A stretch of DNA of 64,000 nt from Candidatus Levyibacteriota bacterium (lineage in GTDB: Bacteria > Patescibacteriota > Microgenomatia > Levybacterales > GWA1-39-11): assembly GCA_050255815.1 (NCBI GenBank), contig JBLMVJ010000035.1, positions 10,727 through 74,726 of the forward strand, given 5' to 3'. Made by a program: the position numbers and the translations under genes. Every line of letters starts with the position of its first letter. The first letter of the stretch is position 1. Of the stretch, positions 1-38,295 are shown in pieces. The notes beneath the pieces were generated by a model. That model worked only from the letters and a program-made list of their open reading frames with translations. It was not told the origin of the DNA and searched no databases.

Positions 1-1041
1 TTACCTGAGGCATCTGATTCTGCCTTTTTGATCAAAAATAAAGGTACGGGACAAAATGTTACACAGATAGACACGCATGGAAATATTACTACTCAGGGCA
101 GCCTGCAGGCTGCTGCTGCAAGTTTTAGCGGCCAGCTTACTGCCGGAGACGCCAGCTTTAGCGGAACGTTGCGGGCATCATCTATCCTGGCTGATGATAT
201 AAACGGACTGGACCAGAAAGTGGCTACCGTTGCCGCAGACCTTATTGCCCGGGTAAAACCGGTTCAGAACATCCCCTCTTCTTCTTTTGGTGAGCCCCTT
301 GCTGATGTAAGCCTGCAGGCAAAGTTTGGGACATTTTCTGAAGGCCTGCTTTCCCTGGGGGCTTCTACCTTTGGCAATATTTCCGTTATGGATATGCTTT
401 CCATAGGATCCGGAAGCACATTCACGCTTTCCCAGGGCGCAATCAATACCTTGGGGACAGACTTGCAGATCCAGCCATTACGCCAAGCCGGAGTCAGCTT
501 TATGGCCGGTGCGGTCATCATAACACCTGATGGACAACTGCAGGTAAATGAGGACGCACTGTTTAACAAAAATCTGGCAGTCAAAGGAACGGTATATACT
601 AACTTGGTTTCTCCATTACCCAATTCTGATTTGTCCGTACAACTGGGTTCGGAGTCTACTTCTTCTGCCGGCTTTGCAGTCAGAGGGGCATCATCTTCTG
701 CAGTCCTCCGGGTGAATAACACCGGAGATGTGGTGGCATCCGGATCAGGTACGTTTGCAAAGATTAATATAAGTATGGTAGGACAGGCACTGGCTGCAAA
801 TGAAAATGAAGCGGTTGCCACCGGGTCTGCCGGAACAGCGGTGCTAAAAGCAAACAAAACCCAGCTCACTATTTTAAACCCTTTGATTACTGACCACTCC
901 CTGATTTATATAACCCCTGCCCAAAACACCTATAACCAGGTGCTGTTTTTAATGCGACAGGACCCTAAGAAATCATTTACGGTTGGGGTATCCCAACCCA
1001 TTTCCCAGGATATAGAGTTCAATTGGCTCATCGTGAACTAA
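1..1041 (+). CDS. Hypothetical secreted/surface protein, 5'-partial; reading frame is open to the window start, first in-window ATG at 28
   Basis: Frame 1 has no stop from position 1. Low-complexity Ser/Ala/Gly-rich protein with a repeated ASFSG motif. No recognisable catalytic motif. Confidence 0.5.
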   Translation, partial: LPEASDSAFLIKNKGTGQNVTQIDTHGNITTQGSLQAAAASFSGQLTAGDASFSGTLRASSILADDINGLDQKVATVAADLIARVKPVQNIPSSSFGEPLADVSLQAKFGTFSEGLLSLGASTFGNISVMDMLSIGSGSTFTLSQGAINTLGTDLQIQPLRQAGVSFMAGAVIITPDGQLQVNEDALFNKNLAVKGTVYTNLVSPLPNSDLSVQLGSESTSSAGFAVRGASSSAVLRVNNTGDVVASGSGTFAKINISMVGQALAANENEAVATGSAGTAVLKANKTQLTILNPLITDHSLIYITPAQNTYNQVLFLMRQDPKKSFTVGVSQPISQDIEFNWLIVN

Positions 1042-1270: not shown

Positions 1271-3373
1271 ATGGGAAATAATTCAACCATTATTCTTCTT
1301 AAGAAAATATCTGTTTGGGTACTTTCTTTTGTACTATTCTTCTTCCCTCTTCTCTTTTTAGTAAACGCAACTGATCCATTCCTTTTGCCAAAACAGGTAT
1401 TCCTGGTTATGGCATCTGTAGTCCTGCTGATCCTTTGGAGCGTTATCATGGTCTTTGAAAAAAAGATTATGATCCGGACCAGTCCGTTTAATCTTCCGGC
1501 AGGACTCTTTACTTTAGCAGTACTTATTTCAGCATTCCTCTCCCGGAATATGTATGATTCACTTGCTCTTGCTATTCCGGTGTTGGCTTCTTTCATACTG
1601 TATTTTGTGGCACAAAACACCATATCAAATAAAAAGGATTTACTGTTTGTCTTATCTGCTCTTCTTTTGGGAGGAGCCGTGTCTTCCCTTATCTCAGTTT
1701 TGTACTACCTGAAGATTTACTTCCTTCCTATTCCGGCAATCCAAAGCCAGTACTTCACTACCTTTGGTTCTCCTATCCAGCACATTATTTATATAGTACC
1801 GCTTTTGATTGTTGCCGCCTACTTCCTGTCTAAAGAAGTGAGAGGGAGAAAACCTGAAGCAAACTACAATACTATATTATTTGGCGGACTTACCGGCACC
1901 CTTCTCATCTCTGCCGTCCTCTTAATAGTACAGGTAGTAACTGCACCACAAAAACCACTCTTACTGCCATACACATTTGGCTTCCAGATTGCTACCGCAG
2001 CTATTTCCCAGGACACCACACGCTTCTTAATTAGCCTGCCGTTTGGGTCCGGATTTGGCACATTCTTATCAGACTTTACCAGGTTTAAACTTCCTGATAT
2101 CAATAATGGCCAGCTTTGGGCTGCATCCTTTAGCACTTCTTCTTCTTTTGTCCTGGAGCTTTTAACCACCGTAGGAGTAGTAGGACTTTTAACCTACTTA
2201 TTTATGATTGCCAAGGTATTAAAGAATAGGACAAAAGACACCACCCCATTATTCTTTGCACTGTTAGTAGTGTTCTTAGTCTCATTCTTCCTGCCGCTTT
2301 CTATCATCTCCCTTACCCTTATCTTTATTTTAATGGCGCTGTTTACCAGCACTTTATTCCTGGACCACAGCAAAAATGTATATGATATAAGCCTTTCTAT
2401 AGTAGCTCTAAAACATGGCCTATTCTCTATAGAGGAAACGTCAGGCGCACCTAAGAAAGCTTCAGAATCTTCAAAGGTGCTTCCGATTATTGTAGCGCTG
2501 GTTATCATTCTGGTTGGCGGGTATACCGGGTATCTCTCATTCAAACTCTTGTCTGCAGACATGAAGATGGCAGACTCTTTGTCACAAAGCAAGAGGAACA
2601 ACGGCCAGGCTATTTATGACCTCCAGAGACAGGCGCTCATAGACTTCCCGTACCGCTCTGATTATTACAGGATCTTCTCCCAGATTAACCTGGCTCTTGC
2701 TAACTCTATAGCCGGTGCTGTCCCACAGGGATCTACCCCTTCCACTACGGCACAGGCAACTATTACGCAATTGCTGCAGCAAAGTATTGCAAACGGCAGG
2801 ACTGCAGTAGCCCTGGCTCCTATGAGCTCAGTAAACTGGGAAAACCTTTCCCAAATCTATAGGAGCTTAATAGGGGTAGGACAAAATGCGGGAGAATTTT
2901 CAGTGGCAACCATGAACCAGGCTATCATTTTAGATCCTTCCAACCCACTCCTGAGGGTAGAATTAGGGGGTATCTACTACCAGCTGCAGCAGTATGACGC
3001 AGCCCAAAACCAATTCCAGATTGCAATTAACCTGAAGCCTGACTTTGCAAATGCATACTACAACCTGGGCCATGCTCTTGAAGCAAAAGGAGATCTGAGA
3101 GGTGCAATAACCGCATACCAGGCAGCACAAAGCCTTACCACCAATGATAATGATAAAAAGAGGTTGGATTCTGAAATGGAAGTTATCCTGAAAAAAATTG
3201 GGACAGAGGTAAAACCGGGCACTCAGCCATCAGCAGCTGCTCCATCTGCAGACCAACCACCACTTGGAATAAGTACACCTTCAGCACAACTGCCTAGCCA
3301 AAAAGACCAGGTAAAATTACCTTCACCACCAACTGAAACTCAACCAACAGCCACACCTAAAACTACGAAATAA
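1271..3373 (+). CDS. Polytopic membrane protein with C-terminal TPR repeats and a Pro-rich tail; O-antigen ligase (Wzy_C)-like, paralog 1
   Basis: ORF 1235..3373; start moved to the ATG at 1271 downstream of a TTGACA(1224)/TAAATT promoter-like pair. About 10-12 hydrophobic helices over the first ~400 aa, then TPR-like 'AYYNLGHALEAKGDL', then a P/T/Q-rich C-terminus. The Wzy_C assignment is inferred from architecture only. Confidence 0.7.
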   Translation: MGNNSTIILLKKISVWVLSFVLFFFPLLFLVNATDPFLLPKQVFLVMASVVLLILWSVIMVFEKKIMIRTSPFNLPAGLFTLAVLISAFLSRNMYDSLALAIPVLASFILYFVAQNTISNKKDLLFVLSALLLGGAVSSLISVLYYLKIYFLPIPAIQSQYFTTFGSPIQHIIYIVPLLIVAAYFLSKEVRGRKPEANYNTILFGGLTGTLLISAVLLIVQVVTAPQKPLLLPYTFGFQIATAAISQDTTRFLISLPFGSGFGTFLSDFTRFKLPDINNGQLWAASFSTSSSFVLELLTTVGVVGLLTYLFMIAKVLKNRTKDTTPLFFALLVVFLVSFFLPLSIISLTLIFILMALFTSTLFLDHSKNVYDISLSIVALKHGLFSIEETSGAPKKASESSKVLPIIVALVIILVGGYTGYLSFKLLSADMKMADSLSQSKRNNGQAIYDLQRQALIDFPYRSDYYRIFSQINLALANSIAGAVPQGSTPSTTAQATITQLLQQSIANGRTAVALAPMSSVNWENLSQIYRSLIGVGQNAGEFSVATMNQAIILDPSNPLLRVELGGIYYQLQQYDAAQNQFQIAINLKPDFANAYYNLGHALEAKGDLRGAITAYQAAQSLTTNDNDKKRLDSEMEVILKKIGTEVKPGTQPSAAAPSADQPPLGISTPSAQLPSQKDQVKLPSPPTETQPTATPKTTK

Positions 3374-3375
3374 GT

Positions 3376-5523
3376 ATGGAAAGTAAAGATGTGCCGTCAA
3401 TAGTATCAAAGCTGCAGATAGGCGTGTTGTGCACCATGCTGGTATTATTCCCCTTAGCATTTATTCCTAACTCCACTGACTCATTTACCATGGGTAAGAG
3501 CCTAATCCTCATACTGGGGACTTCCCTTCTTATCCTGTTGTGGGCAATTGCATCTATATATAAGAAAGGCTTTGTCTATAAATCCAGCCCATTTAACCTT
3601 CCGGTTGCCCTTTTTGGCGTAGTGGTACTTATTTCCTCCCTGCTCTCCCGCAATATGTATGATTCTCTTGTTGCAGCTGTTCCCGTAGTCTTCTCTTGCG
3701 TATTGTACTTTACCATTTCTTATATGATAAGCAGCAGAAAAACACTTATTTTAGCTATTACCAGCCTTATTGCCGGCGGCGCACTGACTGCCCTTTTAAG
3801 TACCGCTTACTATCTGAAACTTTATTTCCTGCCTATTCCGGGTATTAATAACCAGTACTTTTCCCCGTTTGGGTCAGGCGTACAGGAAGCAATTTACCTG
3901 ATTGCCCTTCTCATGTTCCCGCTTTTCTCCCTATTAAGACAAACAAAGACCAGAAAGCTTACGGTTACGCAGGATTTCCTCATTGAAGCAGGTTTGGGAG
4001 GCGCACTTTTGATAGGGGTAATCTTTATTACCCTTTCCATCATTACTTCCCCAACCAAACCTATTATATTGCCATACACATATGGCTTGCAGATTGCAGC
4101 CGCTACTATTAGCCAGGATATCTCGCGCCTCTTTATCTCATTCCCATTTGGATCCGGCTTTGGCACGTTCTTAAATGACTTTGCCCGCTTCAGACTGCAG
4201 GAGCTGAACGCAAACACTACGTTTGCTACCGCCTACCCATCCTATTCATCATCTTTTGCCCTGGAGCTGATGACTACCACCGGCATCTTAGGCATCCTTT
4301 CTTACCTCTTTATAGTGTTTAAGGCCTTAAAAACCCGCATGAAAGACAGCAATCCATCTTACTTTGGCCTGGTTATCTTATTTATTGTCTCATTCTTCTT
4401 ACCGTTTGGCCTTCCAACTATTGCACTGGTCTTTATTCTTTTGGGAGTCTATTCATCATCCTTATTCCTGGCAAATGACAGGCGGGTACATAATACCAGC
4501 CTCTCACTGGTTGCCTTTGACCAGGGAATTATTTCTACAGAGGATGTGTTGAGGAATGAGCGGGTTAAGTCTGAGAGTATTATCCTGCCGGTTCTTATCA
4601 CTATCTTAGTGGTACTAATAGGAGGATTTGCTTCATTTATGATGGTACGCCTGGTAGATGCAGACACCAAAATGGTTTCCTCTTTGGTTGTACCTGCCGG
4701 TAAGAAGCTCACCATCCAGCAGCAATATGACTTGCAAAGAAATGCGGTAAATGAATTCCCTTATAAATCAGACTACCAGAGGACATTCTCCCAGCTTAAT
4801 ATGAACCTGGCTAACTCTATTGCTGCCAGCCTGCCAAAAGGCGCTACCCCATCAGCAGTTGTACAGCAAAGCGTCAACCAGCTCTTACAGCAATCAGTAA
4901 ATTCAGCCAGAAGCGCTGCTGATATAGCACCGCTTACTTCAACCAACTGGTCCAATCTGGCACAAATTTACCGGAACCTGATAGGCGTGGGCCAGGGAGC
5001 TGACCAGTTTGCCATTGCAGCCATGAACCAGGCAACACTGTTAGACCCAACCAATCCATTCTTAAGGCTGGACTACGGTGGTATTTATTACCAGTTAAGC
5101 CAGCTGGATGCAGCCCAAAACCAATTCCAGATTGCCATTAACCTGAAGCCTGACTTTGCTAATGCCTATTACAATCTGGGCCATGTGATAGAGTCCAAAG
5201 GAGACCTTTCTACCGCACTTTCTCTCTACCAGACTACCCTTTCCCTGGCCGGAAACAATCCAACAGATAAAAAGAAACTCAGTGATGAAATAGAAGCATT
5301 GAAGAAAAAGATTAATGAAACAGCAGCTACTCAACAGCAGCAGACACCGGTAAACCTGCAGACCAGCGCAGGCCAGCAGCAACCTATTGGCATTAACGCT
5401 CCTTCAGCTCAATTTCCAGCACCTAGCAGGCCGGTAAAACTTCCTCCACCTCCTGGTGCCAGCGCTTCTCCGGAACCGTCTCCTTCGGCTGCTCCCAGGC
5501 CTACGGCCACCCCCACACAATAA
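3376..5523 (+). CDS. Polytopic membrane protein with C-terminal TPR repeats; O-antigen ligase (Wzy_C)-like, paralog 2
   Basis: Starts 2 nt after the stop of the preceding gene. Collinear similarity to paralog 1 (e.g. 'NMYDSL', 'FGSGFGTFL', 'QNQFQIAINLKPDFANAYYNLGH'). Confidence 0.8.
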   Translation: MESKDVPSIVSKLQIGVLCTMLVLFPLAFIPNSTDSFTMGKSLILILGTSLLILLWAIASIYKKGFVYKSSPFNLPVALFGVVVLISSLLSRNMYDSLVAAVPVVFSCVLYFTISYMISSRKTLILAITSLIAGGALTALLSTAYYLKLYFLPIPGINNQYFSPFGSGVQEAIYLIALLMFPLFSLLRQTKTRKLTVTQDFLIEAGLGGALLIGVIFITLSIITSPTKPIILPYTYGLQIAAATISQDISRLFISFPFGSGFGTFLNDFARFRLQELNANTTFATAYPSYSSSFALELMTTTGILGILSYLFIVFKALKTRMKDSNPSYFGLVILFIVSFFLPFGLPTIALVFILLGVYSSSLFLANDRRVHNTSLSLVAFDQGIISTEDVLRNERVKSESIILPVLITILVVLIGGFASFMMVRLVDADTKMVSSLVVPAGKKLTIQQQYDLQRNAVNEFPYKSDYQRTFSQLNMNLANSIAASLPKGATPSAVVQQSVNQLLQQSVNSARSAADIAPLTSTNWSNLAQIYRNLIGVGQGADQFAIAAMNQATLLDPTNPFLRLDYGGIYYQLSQLDAAQNQFQIAINLKPDFANAYYNLGHVIESKGDLSTALSLYQTTLSLAGNNPTDKKKLSDEIEALKKKINETAATQQQQTPVNLQTSAGQQQPIGINAPSAQFPAPSRPVKLPPPPGASASPEPSPSAAPRPTATPTQ

Positions 5524-7008: not shown

Positions 7009-8271
7009 CTAGTCCTTGCCTAAATTCATTAAGAATTCGTCATTAGTGTCTGTTTTGGCAAGCTTTTCAAGCAAAACCTCTGCCCGCTCATCCGGATTCA
7101 GGATGTCAATCATGCGGCGCATCATAACTACTTTCCTATACTTATCTTCAGGCATCAGAAGCTCTTCCTGACGTGTACCTGATTTTTCTACGTTTATAGC
7201 CGGGAAGATCCTGCGTTCAGCCAGCCTGCGGTCCAAATGCAGCTCCATATTACCGGTTCCTTTAAACTCTTCAAAAACCAGGTCATCCAGCCTGGATCCG
7301 GTCTCTACTAATGCGGTACCTATAATAGTAAGCGATCCTCCATCTTCACAGTTACGTGCGGCCCCAAAGAAACGCTTGGTTGGGTATAAAGCTGCCGGAT
7401 CATATCCTCCGGAAAGGGTACGACCTGAAGGCTCTATAGACAAGTTATAGGCACGGGCCAGCCTGGTAATAGAATCCAGAAGAATTACTACGTGTTTGCC
7501 GTTTTCTACTAAGCGTTTTGCTCTATCTAGGGCTATCTCAGCCACCCTGGTCTGGATCTCAGGAGACTCATCAAAATTGGAAGCTACCACGTCACCCTTC
7601 ACGGAACGCGCTATATCCGTCACCTCTTCAGGACGTTCTCCTATAAGAACCGCCATAAGATGAACATCCGGGAAGTTAGTGGTAATACCGGTGGCAACAT
7701 CCTTCAGGATAGTGGTTTTACCTGCTTTTGGCGGGGAAACTATCATACCGCGCTGTCCAAAACCAATAGGCGCCACCAGGTCAACTACACGGGTAGAAAG
7801 CGGATGTTTTTTAGTAGCCAAAGTAATTTGTGTATTAGGATAGATAGGAGTTAAGTCATCAAAGTAAGGGCGCTTGGTGGACTTTTCAGCCTCAATCCCG
7901 TTTACCTTGCTTATTTTAAGTAAACCATAATAGCGCTCATTATCCTTTGGCGGACGTCCCAGCCCCTCCACCAGGTCTCCCGGACGCAGCCAGAAGCGTC
8001 TGATCTGGGAAGCTGAGATGTAGATATCACGGTCTGATGGCCTGAATTTTGGCCTCAGGAAACCATGGCCTTCATGCTGGATATCTAAAATGCCGGAAAC
8101 TACCTCTCCGGACTCTTCACGCTCATAATCTGAACTGCCGTAGCCGCGCCTATCCTCAATAACCGGTTCTTCCCGGGCTGATACAGGCTCCCCTACCGGC
8201 TCTGAAGCTACAGGCTCTGCCTGACCCTCTTCAACAGGCTCCTTAATAGTTGTTTTACGTGCGACTGGCAT
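7009..8271 (-). CDS. rho: Transcription termination factor Rho
   Basis: Rho RNA-binding region 'RFWLRPGD', Walker A 'PPKAGKTT', and a RecA-like core collinear with Rho throughout. Confidence 0.95.
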   Translation of the reverse strand: MPVARKTTIKEPVEEGQAEPVASEPVGEPVSAREEPVIEDRRGYGSSDYEREESGEVVSGILDIQHEGHGFLRPKFRPSDRDIYISASQIRRFWLRPGDLVEGLGRPPKDNERYYGLLKISKVNGIEAEKSTKRPYFDDLTPIYPNTQITLATKKHPLSTRVVDLVAPIGFGQRGMIVSPPKAGKTTILKDVATGITTNFPDVHLMAVLIGERPEEVTDIARSVKGDVVASNFDESPEIQTRVAEIALDRAKRLVENGKHVVILLDSITRLARAYNLSIEPSGRTLSGGYDPAALYPTKRFFGAARNCEDGGSLTIIGTALVETGSRLDDLVFEEFKGTGNMELHLDRRLAERRIFPAINVEKSGTRQEELLMPEDKYRKVVMMRRMIDILNPDERAEVLLEKLAKTDTNDEFLMNLGKD

Positions 8272-33460: not shown

Positions 33461-33615
33461 AAACCGATTTTGCTCCTCAGTCCTGGCCTTGACCTTAGGC
33501 GCGCAGTCCCAAAGGGGGACGAGCACCGCAAGTCAAGCAACTGGAATGGAAACAAAACAGTACAAATGTAGTAGATGATAAACCGGCTTTGCCCTTCAGT
33601 CCTGGCCTTGACCTA
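33461..33615. repeat. 35-bp imperfect direct repeats (AAACCGrtTTTGCyCyTCAGTCCTGGCCTTGACCT) at 33461-33495 and 33581-33615 flanking an 85-bp segment; the second copy is the 3' end of 5S rRNA
   Basis: Read directly. The enclosed segment begins TTAGGCGCGCAGT-hairpin-CGAGCACCGCAA, also seen at 44883-44922. Confidence 0.6.
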
Positions 33616-33719
33616 TCTTCCCATGTTGTGTAACAACAAAGTATTGTGAGCGCTGACGTGTTTCACTTCTCTGTTCGGAATGGGAAGAGGTGGGACCACA
33701 TCGCTCTAAAGACCAAGAC
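33599..33719 (-). rRNA. rrf: 5S ribosomal RNA
   Basis: Reverse complement contains GGTCCCACCTCTTCCCATTCCGAACAGAGAAGTGAAAC...CATGGGAAGATAGG. Helix I pairing GTCTTGGTC/GGCCAGGAC. Confidence 0.8.
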
Positions 33720-34000
33720 TCAAGAGCAAAACCGGTAAGATCCGAATCTACTCGAATAGTTTGGGGTAACTTCTAGGCTACCCCATTCTTCTCGAATATT
33801 TCGAATTAACATTAACAAACACTAGCGCATTCGAATTGATTCGATTTAAATTCGAACCATTCGAGAATGATTTCTTAGAATCCACGCTATTTGGATCGAC
33901 CTATTAGTACAACTTCGCTGAAACAGTTACCTGTCTTACACGTGTTGCCTATCAACCTGATGGTCTCTCAGGGGTCTAAAAGAGATCTTATCTTAGGGTG

Positions 34001-34033
<33 letters not shown>

Positions 34034-34268
34034 CATGGAAATCTAGCTACCCAGCAGTGCACTTGTAAGTACAACTGGCACACCAGGGATTTCCTCACCC
34101 CAGTCCTCTCGTACTAGGGGCGACTCCCTTCAAATCTCAAACGGTTGTCCTGGATAGAGTCCGAACTGTCTTACGACGTTCTTAACCCAGCTCGCGTACC
34201 TTTTTAACTGGCGAACAGCCAGACGCTTGGGAGCTTCTCCACCCCCGCGCTAAGATGAGCCGACATCG

Positions 34269-34699
34269 CTGTCAATCCAATCAGTAATTAAGAAAGACTT
34301 AAAAACTTAAAACTGATGGTGATACTCTTGTTACCAAGAGCCTCTGACTATACCTTCATCCGCCAACTGGCGGAGCTAGTCGTATGATACAGATTATAAA
34401 TTTCTCTTTATGAGATGAATCCATATCTCACCCTCTCACCTATGCTGGTGAGGGGTTCAGTCGATAGGGTCCAAAAGAAATTTAAAATTCAGAAGTTAAA
34501 ATTCAGAATTAAATTCTTAATTCTGAAATCTGAATTCTTAACTCTATTTGAACCTCGGTATTACCCTCTTGTGTTCAGAAAGTAGGGTTTCACCGATTTG
34601 GACTAGTTATTTAAATTATTAGTACCTTGTTTTTTGACTCAAATACTAATAAATACAGGCAAGAGTATTACTACTCAGGCGCCCCGATATTTTCATATA
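34269..34699 (-). other. Putative group I intron (~431 nt, no ORF) in 23S domain V at the GGCACCU|CGAUGUCGGCUC junction (E. coli ~2500 region)
   Basis: Exon sequences that are contiguous in E. coli are separated here. The 5' exon ends in U and the insertion ends in G. Confidence 0.6.
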
Positions 34700-34742
34700 A
34701 GGTGCCAAACCGCATCGTCGCTGTGGACGCTTGGATGCGATC

Positions 34743-34775
<33 letters not shown>

Positions 34776-35229
34776 AAGCTACGTCCCAACCACTAAGGAA
34801 CGCAGGATCACTAACACCTGCTTTCGCACCTGCTCGACTTGTAGGTCTCGCAGTCAAGCTGGCTTGTGCGTTTGCACAATACGCTCCGATTTCCGTCCGG
34901 AGTTAGCCAACCTTTGTACGCCTCCGTTGCACTTTAGGAGGCAACCTCCCCAGTTAAACTGCCCACCAGACACTGTCTTTTAGCCGTATTTTTATGCGGC
35001 ATTAAAGTAATGCTCACTCATCTTAAAGAGAGGTATTTCATTGATGACCGAAGTCTCCCTCCTATACTAAACAGTTAAAATAAGCTTGCAAATGTCAAGC
35101 TACAGTAAAGCTCCCGGGGTCTTTTTGTCCTAGGACAACCAGGCCGCGTCTTCACAGCCATCTCAATTTCGCCGTGTAAATGTTCAAGACAGTTACTCAG
35201 TCGTTCTACCTTTCGTGCGGGTCGGAACT

Positions 35230-35548
35230 CCATTGTTTTAATGTTCCAACATGGAACCTCACAGTCGCCTGTGAGATCGGACTATATCTTTCCCTTACCA
35301 AATTGGTGAGGGATCTAGCGTCTAGTCTCTGAGGGTTTTCCGATAAATCGGAATCTTCCCTGCTGATTGGCTCCACCAAGCAGATTTTTACTCTTACGAG
35401 TACTGTTGGATACTGAGCTGTTCCAGCAAATAGCTAGATTTTACACTCATTTAGGTTAACGATTGTGTTCTTACGTGACTGTTTTGCTTGTTCCTGATGT
35501 GTATCCCGATTAGATCGGGACTCGGGCAAGTTGATTTGACCCAAACCA
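35230..35548 (-). other. Putative group I intron (~319 nt, no ORF) in 23S at GUCGGGU|AGUUCCGACC (E. coli ~1951 site)
   Basis: Exons flanking the insertion are contiguous in E. coli. The 5' exon ends in U and the insertion ends in G. Confidence 0.6.
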
Positions 35549-37359
35549 ACCCGACAAGGAACTTCGCTACCATAGAACAGTTATAGTTACTGCTGCCGTT
35601 CACCGGAGCTTTAGAAAGCGGCTCCACCTTGCGGTTTCACCACCCACTATTGACTTACCGGCACTGGGCAGGTGTCAGCCCCTATACGTTACCTTTCGGT
35701 TTTGCAGGGACCTGTGTTTTAGATAAACAGTCGCTAAGTAATCTTTTGCTTAACCTGGATGTTACTCCAGGCAGGGCATCTCCCATAGGTTACGCCCAGC
35801 TTTTGTTGCCGAGTTCCTTGAACATTTGTCTCACGGTCGCCTTAGTCTACTCGACCAATCCACCTGTGTCGGTTATGCGGTACGGCAAAATATAGCACTC
35901 CTCACGAATCTTTTCCTGAAGACTGAAACTTACGATCCTCACCCTACTTTCTTGCGATTTCAGATTTGCATTCGCCACTTAATTAAACACTTTGACGGAT
36001 TTGCCCATCAAAACTATCTTATGGCTTGGACCCTGTTTACAGGGCGATCCTTTCCACTCTTGTCCATCCTTGAGTAATAACGCACTATACTCTGTAGCAG
36101 AATATTAACTGCTTGTCCATCCGGCTACCCCGCGCTTTATGACGGGCCACCGTTAGGAGCCGACTAACGCTGCGCTGACTTACATTGCGCAGCAAACCTT
36201 GGATTTTCGGCGGACGCCGTTCTCAGGCGTCATTCGCTACTCATGCCGGCATTCTCACTTGTAAACGCTCCACCATACCTTACAGTACAGCTTCGCTGCA
36301 TTTACGACGCTCCCCTACCACTTGCTCCGATAAATCGGAGTCAAATCTCCATCGTCGGTATTAAGCTTAATCCTCGATCATTTCCGGCGCCATTCTCCAA
36401 TGTCGACTAGTGAGCTGTTACGCTTTCTTTAAAGGATGGCTGCTTCTGAGCCAACCTCCTAGCTGTCTATGGAAAATGACTTCCTTATCAACTTAGCTTA
36501 AATTTAGAGACCTTAGATGGGAGTCTGGGCTGTTTCCCTTTAGACCCACGAGCTTAGCCCCGCAAGTCTGACTCTCTATTAAGTTTTTACGGTATTCGGA
36601 GTTTGATTGATCCTGAAAAGTTGCCTCTCCAGAGACCATTCAGTGCTCTACCCCCGTAAAAACATACAAAAGGCTATACCAAAATATATTTCGGGGAGAA
36701 CCAGCTATCTCCAGGTTCGTTTAGTATGTCACCCCTTACCACAAGTCGTCTCAGATCATTGCTGCGATCACGAGTTCGGGCCTTCCTCATCCTTTCGAAC
36801 AAGTTCACCCTGCTCATGGTAAGCTCACCTGGTTTCGGGTCTTTTGCAATGCGCATTTAGGTATCCCAGTTAGAGATCGCTTTCACTATGCCTCCCCCCT
36901 CACCTTTCCAACGAAAATTCCAACCTTTGTTTTAAATCGAGCTTGTTTCGATAATATTTCAAAGTGGTAATCCTCATTAGAATGGTGAGGGGTTAGACTG
37001 CGCAATACAAAAACTCACCGGCTCATTCTTCAATAGGCACGACGTTATACCCTTGCGGGCACTTCGTCTGCTTGTTAGCTAATAGTTTCAGTAACTCTTT
37101 CATTCCCCTCCCGGGGTGCTTTTCACCTTTCCCTCGCGGTACTAGTTCACTATCGGTAGATGTTGATATTTAGCTTTGGAGCGTGGTCGCCCCGGCTTCC
37201 CACAGGGTTTAATCGTACCCCATGGTACTCAGGAACAGGCAAGAAGTGAAAATCATTTCAAATACGGGACTATCACCCTCTTTGGTCTCTTTTTCCAAAA
37301 CGTTCTTCTATGATTTCCATTTGTGACTTCTTTTGCATTTAAGCAAGCCGTCCTACAAC

Positions 37360-37660
37360 CCCCCTCACCTTTTTATCACTAACCTTTTTAAAAGTTCTTG
37401 CCAAGCTTTTGCGCGCTTCTTAAGCGCCTGCTCTCTTCTAAAAGCTAATTTATAAGAAGTATATGCTTCATAATAAATAAGCTCCCATGGCAAAAACTTT
37501 TTAGTATATATAGACTTTCCTTTATTATGGTCCGTAAATCGAGTTTTAAGATCTTTTGTTGAACCAATATAAAACTGGTCGAACTTTACACTCTTAAGAA
37601 TATACGTGTAGAACATAAGTCTATTATAGTTATTTAAGTTAGGAACAAAAAGGTGAGGGG
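37360..37660 (-). mobile_element. Hairpin-bounded intervening sequence in 23S domain I carrying a GIY-YIG nuclease ORF; ~15-bp terminal inverted repeats CCCCCTCACCTTTTT / AAAAAGGTGAGGGG
   Basis: Replaces the variable region after AGCGAACG (E. coli ~270-350). Flanking rRNA blocks identified on both sides. Confidence 0.6.
37365..37616 (-). CDS. Small GIY-YIG nuclease superfamily protein (COG2827-like, 83 aa) encoded inside the 23S rRNA gene
   Basis: 'YTYILKS...FYIGSTKDLKTRFTDHNKGK...PWELIYYEAY...RREQALKK' matches the small URI-domain endonuclease family. Same strand as the rRNA. Confidence 0.75.
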   Translation of the reverse strand: MFYTYILKSVKFDQFYIGSTKDLKTRFTDHNKGKSIYTKKFLPWELIYYEAYTSYKLAFRREQALKKRAKAWQELLKRLVIKR

Positions 37661-38222
37661 TTTGAGCTGTTCCGCGTTCGCTCGCCGCTACTGACGGAAT
37701 CTCTGTGATTTCTTTTCCTCGGACTACTTAGATGTTTCAGTTGGTCCGGTATCCCGCCGACTACTAATATATTAATCTTGCGACTAATAACTTCATAGCA
37801 GGCTCCCAGTTAAACTGGGGGGTTTCCCCATTCGGACACCACCGGATCATAATGTCTTCGGCCATTCCCCGGTGATTTTCGCGAGCCAGATGCGTCCTTC
37901 TTCGGTCAACACCTCCTAGGCATCCACTATTAGCATGAATCAAATAGCGTAGATTCTAAAAAACCAATTCATTAAAAACCATGCCTCGGCTTGAAACATG
38001 GAAAATCCGCCACCCGGCGGATTTTTTTAATCCTCCGTCCCGATTAGATCGGGACTTCGGCCTAGTTGTTTGTTTGTAATTCTTCCAATTATTAATGAGC
38101 AAAACGCTTTTTGCGTTGCCCTCGGATGTAATCCGAGGCCATATCTCTCCTGTACTCGTTTCTCGCCGGGAAGTATATTGCCCTTCCACCAGCGAGGAAC
38201 CAATACAAGAAAACTAAAAAAG

Positions 38223-38295
38223 TGGACCCAAGGAGATTTGAACTCCTGACCTCGTCATTGCAAATGACGCGCTCTACCAGCTAAGCTATGGGCCC
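38223..38295 (-). tRNA. tRNA-Ala (anticodon TGC)
   Basis: Reverse complement reads GGGCCCATAGCTTAGCTGGTAGAGCGCGTCATTTGCAATGACGAGGTCAGGAGTTCAAATCTCCTTGGGTCCA. Anticodon loop TTTGCAA. No encoded CCA. Confidence 0.9.

Follow-up and report, generated by a model that had tools for sequence, protein, structure and literature searches.

In classical rRNA intervening sequences (IVSs), a stem-loop takes the place of a helix tip and is cut out by RNase III (PMC4990558). In bacteria of the Candidate Phyla Radiation (CPR), Tsurumaki et al. (2024, J Bacteriol; PMC11270868) described 15 open reading frames (ORFs) of the GIY-YIG type in insertions of 16S rRNA and 15 in insertions of 23S rRNA. All 30 lie in non-intron insertions spread over several sites, and the authors view them as standing outside a homing context; the same source names Brown et al. 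(2015) as the first to note them. Here we describe a GIY-YIG ORF within a 300-nt hairpin insertion of the 23S rRNA gene, located in a 64,000-nt stretch of a Candidatus Levyibacteriota genome (contig JBLMVJ010000035.1; this whole stretch is referred to below as the window). An earlier annotation made without database searches (the first-pass annotation) had placed an 83-residue GIY-YIG ORF on the rRNA strand of a ~300-nt 23S insertion at this locus, and searches with Rfam and Pfam bear it out. The anatomy of the element is that of a classical rRNA intervening sequence. We think it probable that the segment is an ORF-bearing 23S IVS, belonging to a family of self-contained hairpin insertions that occupy variable rRNA helix tips in a Microgenomates/Levybacteria-like CPR lineage.

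Hairpin insertion and nuclease gene

In the Rfam alignment, the loop of hairpin 274-296 of the large-subunit rRNA model holds 281 extra nucleotides. A BLAST comparison with E. coli rrlH placed the insertion site just after E. coli nucleotide 270, where E. coli itself has no hairpin; we take this site to be helix 15 (H15) in the standard numbering, the comparison having tested its position only. The first-pass annotation had described 15-bp inverted repeats at the ends of the insertion. The repeats are real, but they are longer than that: an inverted-repeat search gave arms of 23 nt (Table 1) that are 87% complementary and include a perfect 14-bp match (CCCCTCACCTTTTT/AAAAAGGTGAGGGG). The closing stem of the insertion is 22-23 bp, a duplex long enough for RNase III, and its 3' arm also encodes the final residues of the ORF and the UGA stop. 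Folding of the RNA corresponding to 37340-37680 (minus strand) gave a free energy of -101.6 kcal/mol (z = -6.6), and none of 100 shuffled sequences was as stable.

An alignment of nine independent homologous elements divides the stem into an unvarying base of 9 bp (CCCCUCACC/GGUGAGGGG, hereafter the core) and a distal portion of 13 bp that covaries. Across the alignment, 95.2% of the cells of the 23-pair stem are paired, versus 47-62% when the partners are slid, and compensatory changes are present at nine stem pairs, a number that none of 500 shuffles reached. Cells that depart from Watson-Crick pairing are mostly G.U rather than A.C, both within the H15 clade (19 versus 1) and among stem mismatches family-wide (37 versus 13; binomial p = 9e-4), an excess that points to selection on pairing of the sense-strand RNA. 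The flanks (AAA/CCCC...GGGG/GGUUG, with slashes at the insertion ends) contain no direct repeat indicative of a target-site duplication. The element displays two characteristic features of an IVS, namely an extended stem-loop with complementary borders in place of an rRNA helix tip and sporadic presence or variation among related rRNA genes.

The ORF starts with ATG, ends with TGA and matches the Pfam GIY-YIG family PF01541 over residues 1-71 (E = 1.7e-15; 57.5 bits against a cut-off of 22.6). GIY-YIG and T5orf172 were its only Pfam matches, and PF05635, the S23p/23S_rRNA_IVP family, was not matched. Residues Y5, Y16, R26, H30 and E62 are invariant among 51 homologues, Y3 and N31 are conserved in at least 90% of them, and the catalytic residues line up with their equivalents in BH0048. 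By sequence, profile and fold, the nearest solved structures are the UPF0213 proteins BH0048 and EF2693, followed by SLX1 and then by the I-TevI catalytic domain (profile-search E-values of 1e-12, 2e-5 and 5e-4, respectively). An AlphaFold2 (AF2) model, predicted with a pLDDT of 95.3, has the secondary structure order of the GIY-YIG fold (E-E-H-E-H-H), and its top Foldseek matches were BH0048 and SLX1 (TM 0.65-0.72) and I-TevI (TM 0.49). The protein shares 26% identity with E. coli YhbQ (E = 5e-5). It contains no DNA-binding domain or linker and has no room for one, the catalytic domain taking up residues 1-71 of the 83. Its score against the NCBIfam family of group I intron endonucleases (TIGR01453) is 18.9 bits, below the cut-off of 56.05, and neither tblastn nor a profile search detected another GIY-YIG copy in the window. 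Judged from its sequence, the product is a member of the GIY-YIG nuclease family that retains all of the catalytic residues and is predicted to be active. The first-pass annotation had counted the lack of those residues among the findings that would refute it, and its proposal of a helix-bounded, non-intron intervening sequence with its own nuclease gene thereby gains support.

No Shine-Dalgarno (SD) sequence precedes the ORF, and the region 37250-37800 contains no -35 element, no canonical sigma-70 promoter and no intrinsic terminator. A -10-like hexamer does stand ahead of the start codon (Table 1). Reading of the upstream sequences by eye (a script flagged exact TATAAT only) showed that, in 14 of 16 distinct elements, TAnAAT precedes the ATG by 5-10 nt (mode 6), with intervening bases that vary. 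The distance from TAnAAT to AUG is that expected of a leaderless mRNA and suggests a leaderless transcript; because no canonical promoter was found, the idea of a promoter leans on the conserved TAnAAT. The TGA stop falls within GGTGAGGGG (in RNA, GGUGAGGGG) in 15 of the 16 distinct ORF-bearing elements and comes earlier in the other, L094 (L identifiers denote genomic or metagenome loci, and P identifiers protein homologues).

Homologues and the hairpin family

The closest protein homologues are 64-82% identical to the window's protein, and the nearest relatives are Levybacteria and Patescibacteria, on which the assignment of the element to CPR is based. All seven of P0001, P0002, P0004, P0005 and P0008-P0010 are encoded at exactly the same 23S site and on the same strand, with near-identical boundaries (AAA/CCCCTCACC...GGTGAGGGG/GGTTG) that are found in 15 distinct homologous elements. 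The contigs of the compared loci are short, and many derive from metagenome bins that may carry wrong taxonomic labels (for example 'Pseudomonadales' for L004 and 'Bdellovibrionales' for L002). Fifteen of the 16 distinct ORFs at the H15 site are intact, at 79-83 aa; that of L004 is disrupted, with a frame problem at its N-terminus and YNG replacing YIG. Among the eight aligned ORFs, all intact, the ratio of nonsynonymous to synonymous substitution rates (dN/dS) is 0.06-0.38 with synonymous sites saturated, and by this measure the ORF is under purifying selection. Inheritance looks mainly vertical, since element divergence and 23S host-flank divergence are correlated (Mantel r 0.61, p 0.002). 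Clustering of the host flanks grouped the ORF-bearing hosts mostly together, at distances of ~0.3 and in a tree with too little resolution to count gains and losses. One locus, L136 (reverse strand, from position 41), holds a composite element at the H15 site, in which the usual 5' arm and a GIY-YIG ORF with the C-terminal half of another subfamily are followed by a second hairpin of the CCCCCACACC type, which is also present in L011 and L013; recombination or nested insertion may have produced the composite.

A metagenome scan, using a pattern composed of the 5' flank plus the 5' core, returned 42 loci. The ORF-bearing form (293-301 nt) is present in 13 of them, and in 23 the H15 site is occupied by near-perfect hairpins of 54-132 nt that lack the ORF and have the same 9-bp base. 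The first-pass annotation had raised the prospect of a universal expansion segment with no ORF polymorphism among close relatives; these counts, with both forms at one site, speak against it. The ORF-less hairpins at H15 comprise at least 12 distinct forms with unrelated interiors, and the site is empty or different in L021 and L035.

Eight or more further rRNA sites have hairpins bounded by this core (Table 1), which argues against the core stem being a universal feature of Microgenomates restricted to H15. GIY-YIG ORFs were also found in core-bounded hairpins at E. coli ~1704-1770 (L112) and ~2790-2815 (L137), and the ORF of L112 repeats the layout of TATAAT, 6 nt and ATG. Locus L133 (reverse strand) carries two 132-nt ORF-less hairpins (2370-2501 and 3583-3714) that match at 131 of 132 positions and occupy two 23S sites of one gene (E. 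coli ~270 and ~1164), a degree of identity that indicates a probable recent duplication or gene conversion. In L125 (reverse strand, 7205-7265), the last 28 nt (3' side) of a 61-nt hairpin at E. coli ~1704-1770 are identical to the 3' terminus of the ORF-bearing elements that L090 and L111 have at H15, with the KRLEIER codons and the stop among them, and the hairpin looks like a deletion derivative at another site. It is the only hairpin with a clear derivation from the ORF element. The window's own ORF-less hairpin (36896..36992) was tried as a deletion derivative and rejected, as its interior resembles that of the ORF element no better than shuffled sequences do. The diversity of sites, the ORF-less derivatives and the near-identical copies argue for mobility of the hairpins, and it is from these that we infer it.

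Small GIY-YIG proteins of this family had been described in the first-pass annotation as normally free-standing genes. This holds for E. coli yhbQ, but the 80 best genomic homologues include 9 located in rRNA operons and 25 with a tRNA gene no more than 150 nt away, every one of the 25 co-oriented with it (p = 6e-8). The rRNA-operon cases include three 16S regions, 23S helix 25 (in a gammaproteobacterial bin and a Parcubacteria bin) and a 16S-tRNA spacer. The other 46 have no stable RNA nearby; Rfam searches of 20 loci revealed no hidden stable RNA adjacent to such 'free-standing' homologues, and about half of the family is truly intergenic. A strong inverted repeat encloses 45 of 79 distinct copies, versus 2% of control positions, and no SD sequence is present in 77 of 85 upstream regions. 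The family is large (27,364 clusters at 50% identity), and the protein subfamily as a whole is tied to stable-RNA genes across phyla.

Some homologues adjoin tRNA genes with almost no spacer. The AUG lies 1-4 nt after the 3' end of a tRNA in L028, L039 and L064, and the end of the ORF overlaps the 5' end of the next tRNA in L030, L050, L062 and L065; tRNA end-processing would therefore create mRNA ends. In L073 (3787-4339), a pair of diverged tRNA-Ile(GAU) genes flanks a GIY-YIG ORF, and the spacer between the two genes also holds a remnant resembling a tRNA. Many of the close homologues are fusions of 230-300 aa (P0128, P0130, P0131, P0145 and P0216), in which a complete GIY-YIG domain (residues 1-80) and a linker continue into a type IV prepilin cleavage motif, KSGAG/FTLIE (Pfam N_methyl, T2SSG; the slash marks the cleavage point), with no Met nearby. 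The GIY-YIG domain is in the position of the pilin leader peptide, and prepilin peptidase would therefore release it. L021 (3860-4445), from an Arenicellales (gammaproteobacterial) bin, has a ~580-nt IVS at helix 25 made up of three consecutive hairpins that reuse an CCCAGCACCU(A/G)AAUU repeat, the middle one holding a GIY-YIG ORF; elements of this kind thus extend beyond CPR bacteria. A homologue of 51% identity from a Nanoarchaeota bin (L010, 2800-3100) is enclosed by a perfect 20-bp inverted repeat starting AUCCCUCACCC, which suggests inter-domain transfer or mis-binning.

The host 23S gene is 4067 nt long versus 2925 nt for the Rfam model, corresponding to ~1.1 kb of insertions. It is preceded by tRNA-Ala(UGC) (38222-38295) and followed by 5S rRNA (33600-33717), so that the operon reads tRNA-Ala(UGC)-23S-5S over 33600-38295. 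Rfam identified no 16S rRNA anywhere in the window, and the 16S gene is therefore unlinked to the 23S gene. The ORF-less group I intron occupies a position (E. coli ~1951) listed among the frequent CPR intron sites by Tsurumaki et al. (PMC11270868). Within the 431-nt insertion, 34324-34652 gives a sub-threshold group I match over the full model length (24.4 bits, E = 3.7e-4) and is a probable group I intron alongside the clear one in the same gene; no convincing ORF was found in this insertion. The 97-nt hairpin appears in the Rfam alignment as an 89-nt insertion at model position ~655 and folds at -52 kcal/mol. Five copies of the 9-mer CCCCTCACC are present in the window against 0.53 expected, and all five are inside the 23S gene.

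Table 1. Features of the 23S rRNA gene in the window, and rRNA sites of core-bounded hairpins in E. coli numbering
Feature	Location	Strand	Remarks
ORF-bearing hairpin insertion (IVS-type), 300 nt	37361..37660	minus	replaces hairpin tip after E. coli nt 270
Stem 5' arm (rRNA sense), CCCCUCACCUUUUUGUUCCUAAC	37638..37660	minus	first 9 nt (37652-37660) are the invariant core
Stem 3' arm, GUUAGUGAUAAAAAGGUGAGGGG	37361..37383	minus	last 9 nt (37361-37369) are the invariant core
TATAAT, -10-like hexamer	37623..37628	minus	exactly 6 nt upstream of AUG
GIY-YIG nuclease gene, 83 aa + stop, UPF0213/YhbQ/SLX1 type	37365..37616	minus	Pfam, PDB searches, AF2/Foldseek, dN/dS
23S rRNA host gene	33883..37949	minus	Rfam RF02541, 2126.5 bits, model positions 1-2925
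Second hairpin insertion, 97 nt, ORF-less	36896..36992	minus	core CCCCUCACC/GGUGAGGGG; loop of hairpin at ~E. coli 612-616
Group I intron, ORF-less	35258-35526	minus	RF00028, 80.5 bits; near E. coli ~1951
431-nt insertion	34269-34699	minus	exactly between E. coli nt 2500 and 2501
Short hairpin, CCCCUCACC-AGCAUA-GGUGAGAGGG	34431..34455	minus	same 9-nt core, inside the 431-nt insertion
Core-bounded hairpin sites, 23S	E. coli ~130-180, 270, ~540 (helix 25), ~612-617		
Core-bounded hairpin sites, 23S (continued)	E. coli ~1164 (helix-45 region), ~1540, ~1704-1770, ~2790-2815		
Core-bounded hairpin site, 16S	E. coli ~75-94		

Mechanism and competing explanations

If the segment is an ORF-bearing IVS, its two arms would pair in the rRNA precursor and the insert would fold as an insulated domain, leaving the folding of 23S rRNA undisturbed. 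By analogy with classical IVSs (PMC4990558), the stem probably serves to insulate the insert and to guide its removal, which would be carried out by RNase III and, as in those IVSs, without religation; alternatively, the insert might be tolerated as an expansion segment. The mRNA of the nuclease would be a leaderless transcript initiated from the internal -10 element, and such a transcript, lacking the 5' arm, would keep the stop codon single-stranded. The nuclease would act as a selfish or maintenance gene of the hairpin element. It is probably a DNA nuclease specific for structure and not for sequence, because it has an SLX1-like fold and no DNA-binding domain, and it would persist mostly by vertical descent. 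Purifying selection and co-divergence with the host, as estimated from the alignments, argue for long residence and some retained function.

Several considerations weigh against this interpretation. The pattern used in the metagenome scan contained the core, so relatives with a core-less hairpin at the site would have been invisible. Long purifying selection and host co-divergence are odd for a purely selfish homing gene, and a function useful to the host fits equally. TAnAAT could be mere AU-rich leader sequence, there being no -35 element and no canonical promoter. A cut by RNase III inside the core would strip the UGA stop from the excised RNA, and a transcript from the rRNA promoter may therefore not be the mRNA. 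Other domains of life have expansion segments at the helix tips used here, and for this reason the insert might be retained in mature rRNA. It also counts against the proposal that excision, the start of transcription and translation are all inferred.

A broader hypothesis, which we put forward tentatively and with considerable doubt, is that the element is the autonomous member of a class of mobile hairpin cassettes. These would be small SD-less GIY-YIG genes within a sequence-specific stem that settle where host processing removes them: at rRNA helix tips (RNase III), in tRNA flanks (RNase P or Z) and in the leader of type IV prepilins (prepilin peptidase). The ORF-less hairpins would be non-autonomous derivatives, and the nuclease would recognise a hairpin or cruciform and not a sequence.

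The finding of one core around hairpins at nine or more rRNA sites could also be accommodated by an autonomous/non-autonomous DNA transposon system, with the CCCCTCACC/GGTGAGGGG arms as terminal inverted repeats, the GIY-YIG protein as transposase or hairpin-specific nuclease, and the ORF-less hairpins as copies mobilised in trans and resembling miniature inverted-repeat transposable elements. ORF-bearing copies at several sites, the 99% identity of the two L133 copies and the deletion-derivative-like hairpin of L125 agree with such a system, as do the protein's closest relationship, to SLX1 (which specifically cleaves branched and hairpin DNA), and the 10-fold over-representation in the window of the core 9-mer, which is found in the rRNA gene only. 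The excess of G.U over A.C, however, reflects selection on sense-strand RNA pairing and not a DNA repeat, the flanks show no target-site duplication, and most ORF-less interiors are unrelated to the ORF element; an 83-aa single-domain protein has no known precedent as a transposase, every core-bounded copy lies within rRNA, and gene conversion between hairpins sharing the core could also give near-identical copies. We consider a transposon quite unlikely on this evidence. Strong purifying selection and the agreement between element and host divergences would instead be natural for a housekeeping repair nuclease of the YhbQ type, lodged in stable-RNA units so that its expression is coupled to rRNA and tRNA synthesis, with the hairpin serving only for processing or insulation. 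The single copy in the window, the size and spread of the family (given above) and the annotation of E. coli YhbQ as a DNA damage response nuclease are in keeping with this, as is the placement of 34 of 80 homologues in rRNA or tRNA units, all 34 co-oriented. The sites nevertheless vary by lineage (at least four 23S regions, three 16S regions, a 16S-tRNA spacer, more than 10 tRNAs and intergenic positions), variation that we believe only mobility explains; close relatives carry ORF-less hairpins at the same site, and copies are present in the Nanoarchaeota bin (L010) and in Proteobacteria. A housekeeping role of this kind is, in our judgment, unlikely, if worth keeping in view.

The first-pass annotation had also allowed for an ORF of intron origin, and a homing endonuclease gene of the classical type, housed in a self-splicing intron that is degenerate or atypical, might seem natural in a 23S gene that carries one clear and one probable group I intron, given that I-TevI and similar GIY-YIG enzymes are intron homing endonucleases and that the ORF has a weak match to an NCBIfam family of group I intron endonucleases. 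That match is far below its cut-off (18.9 against 56), a DNA-binding domain is missing from the 83-aa protein, and the insert consists simply of a long hairpin on a variable helix tip. Neither RF00028 nor any group II model matched 37340-37680 even at E<=10 in Rfam, which effectively refutes the intron reading; Tsurumaki et al. (PMC11270868) likewise place all GIY-YIG ORFs outside introns. We regard an intron origin as highly improbable. Equally little credence, or slightly less, attaches to the view that the ORF arose by chance or is decaying within an ordinary expansion hairpin, a view already advanced for the S23p ORF in the IVS of Coxiella. An ORF in an IVS need not be functional (PMC4990558), and L004 has a frame problem and YNG for YIG, but nearly all distinct H15-site ORFs (15/16) are intact at 79-83 aa, with invariant catalytic residues and the dN/dS range of 0.06-0.38. 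For the window copy, the selection analysis refutes decay.

If the hairpins are indeed mobile and the nuclease drives or maintains them, they would represent selfish elements of a new type that specialise in rRNA and tRNA genes, and would help to explain the richness of insertions in CPR rRNA genes. The practical bearing is on rRNA-based phylogeny and on the assembly and binning of CPR genomes.

Comparison with known systems

Homing endonucleases of the I-TevI type share with the window's protein the catalytic fold, a near-identical spacing of the Tyr/Tyr/Arg/His residues and residence in an essential conserved gene. The window case differs in having no intron, no linker and no DNA-binding domain, in its sub-cut-off score and in a TM of 0.49. 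The best matches by sequence, profile and fold are to the UPF0213/YhbQ/SLX1 branch (PDB 1zg2 and 1ywl; SLX1, 7cq3, 4xlg and 6seh), whose bacterial UPF0213/YhbQ members are likewise single-domain proteins of about 80-100 aa. E. coli yhbQ is free-standing among protein-coding genes, whereas the window gene lies in the loop of an rRNA hairpin, lacks an SD sequence and ends, at its stop codon, within the stem; a RING domain and a partner, SLX4, further distinguish SLX1.

Like the classical 23S IVSs of Salmonella, Yersinia, Leptospira and Coxiella (PMC4990558), the element is a stem-loop with complementary borders at a helix tip, sporadic in occurrence, and some of those IVSs also carry an ORF. Members of the present family also use the helix 9/10, 25 and 45 regions, although the window copy is at the helix-15 position and not at helices 9, 25 or 45. 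The ORFs themselves differ in kind, being a GIY-YIG nuclease here and an S23p four-helix-bundle protein (PF05635) there, and in history, since purifying selection acts strongly on the present ORF and the S23p ORF of Coxiella is in decay. Hairpins at many sites of the gene have a single 9-bp stem base in common here, which again sets the family apart. Excision by RNase III belongs to the classical IVSs and is assumed by analogy for this one.

The closest likeness is to the GIY-YIG insertions of CPR rRNA genes (PMC11270868), with which the element shares its host group, Pfam domain, location in a non-intron 23S insertion of at least 100 bp and sparse ORFs at several sites. As a non-intron insertion of at least 100 bp relative to E. 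coli rRNA that carries a GIY-YIG ORF, it fits the definition used there, and taken alone it is one more case of these published ORFs. The novelty presumed by the first-pass annotation was accordingly overstated, 30 such ORFs having already been reported in 2024. In the part of that paper that we covered, we found no description of the closing stem, the invariant core, the multi-site ORF-less hairpins, the -10-like hexamer, selection on the ORF or the link to tRNA. Limited literature searches met no account of the hairpin-family architecture, expression signals, ORF selection or association with tRNA/rRNA genes and prepilins, and those for GIY-YIG genes beside tRNA genes returned fungal mitochondrial papers only. 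What the present analysis adds to the published insertions is a covarying stem with an invariant 9-bp base reused at helix tips, a -10-like signal at the spacing of a leaderless mRNA, a stop codon embedded in the stem and a nuclease gene under selection.

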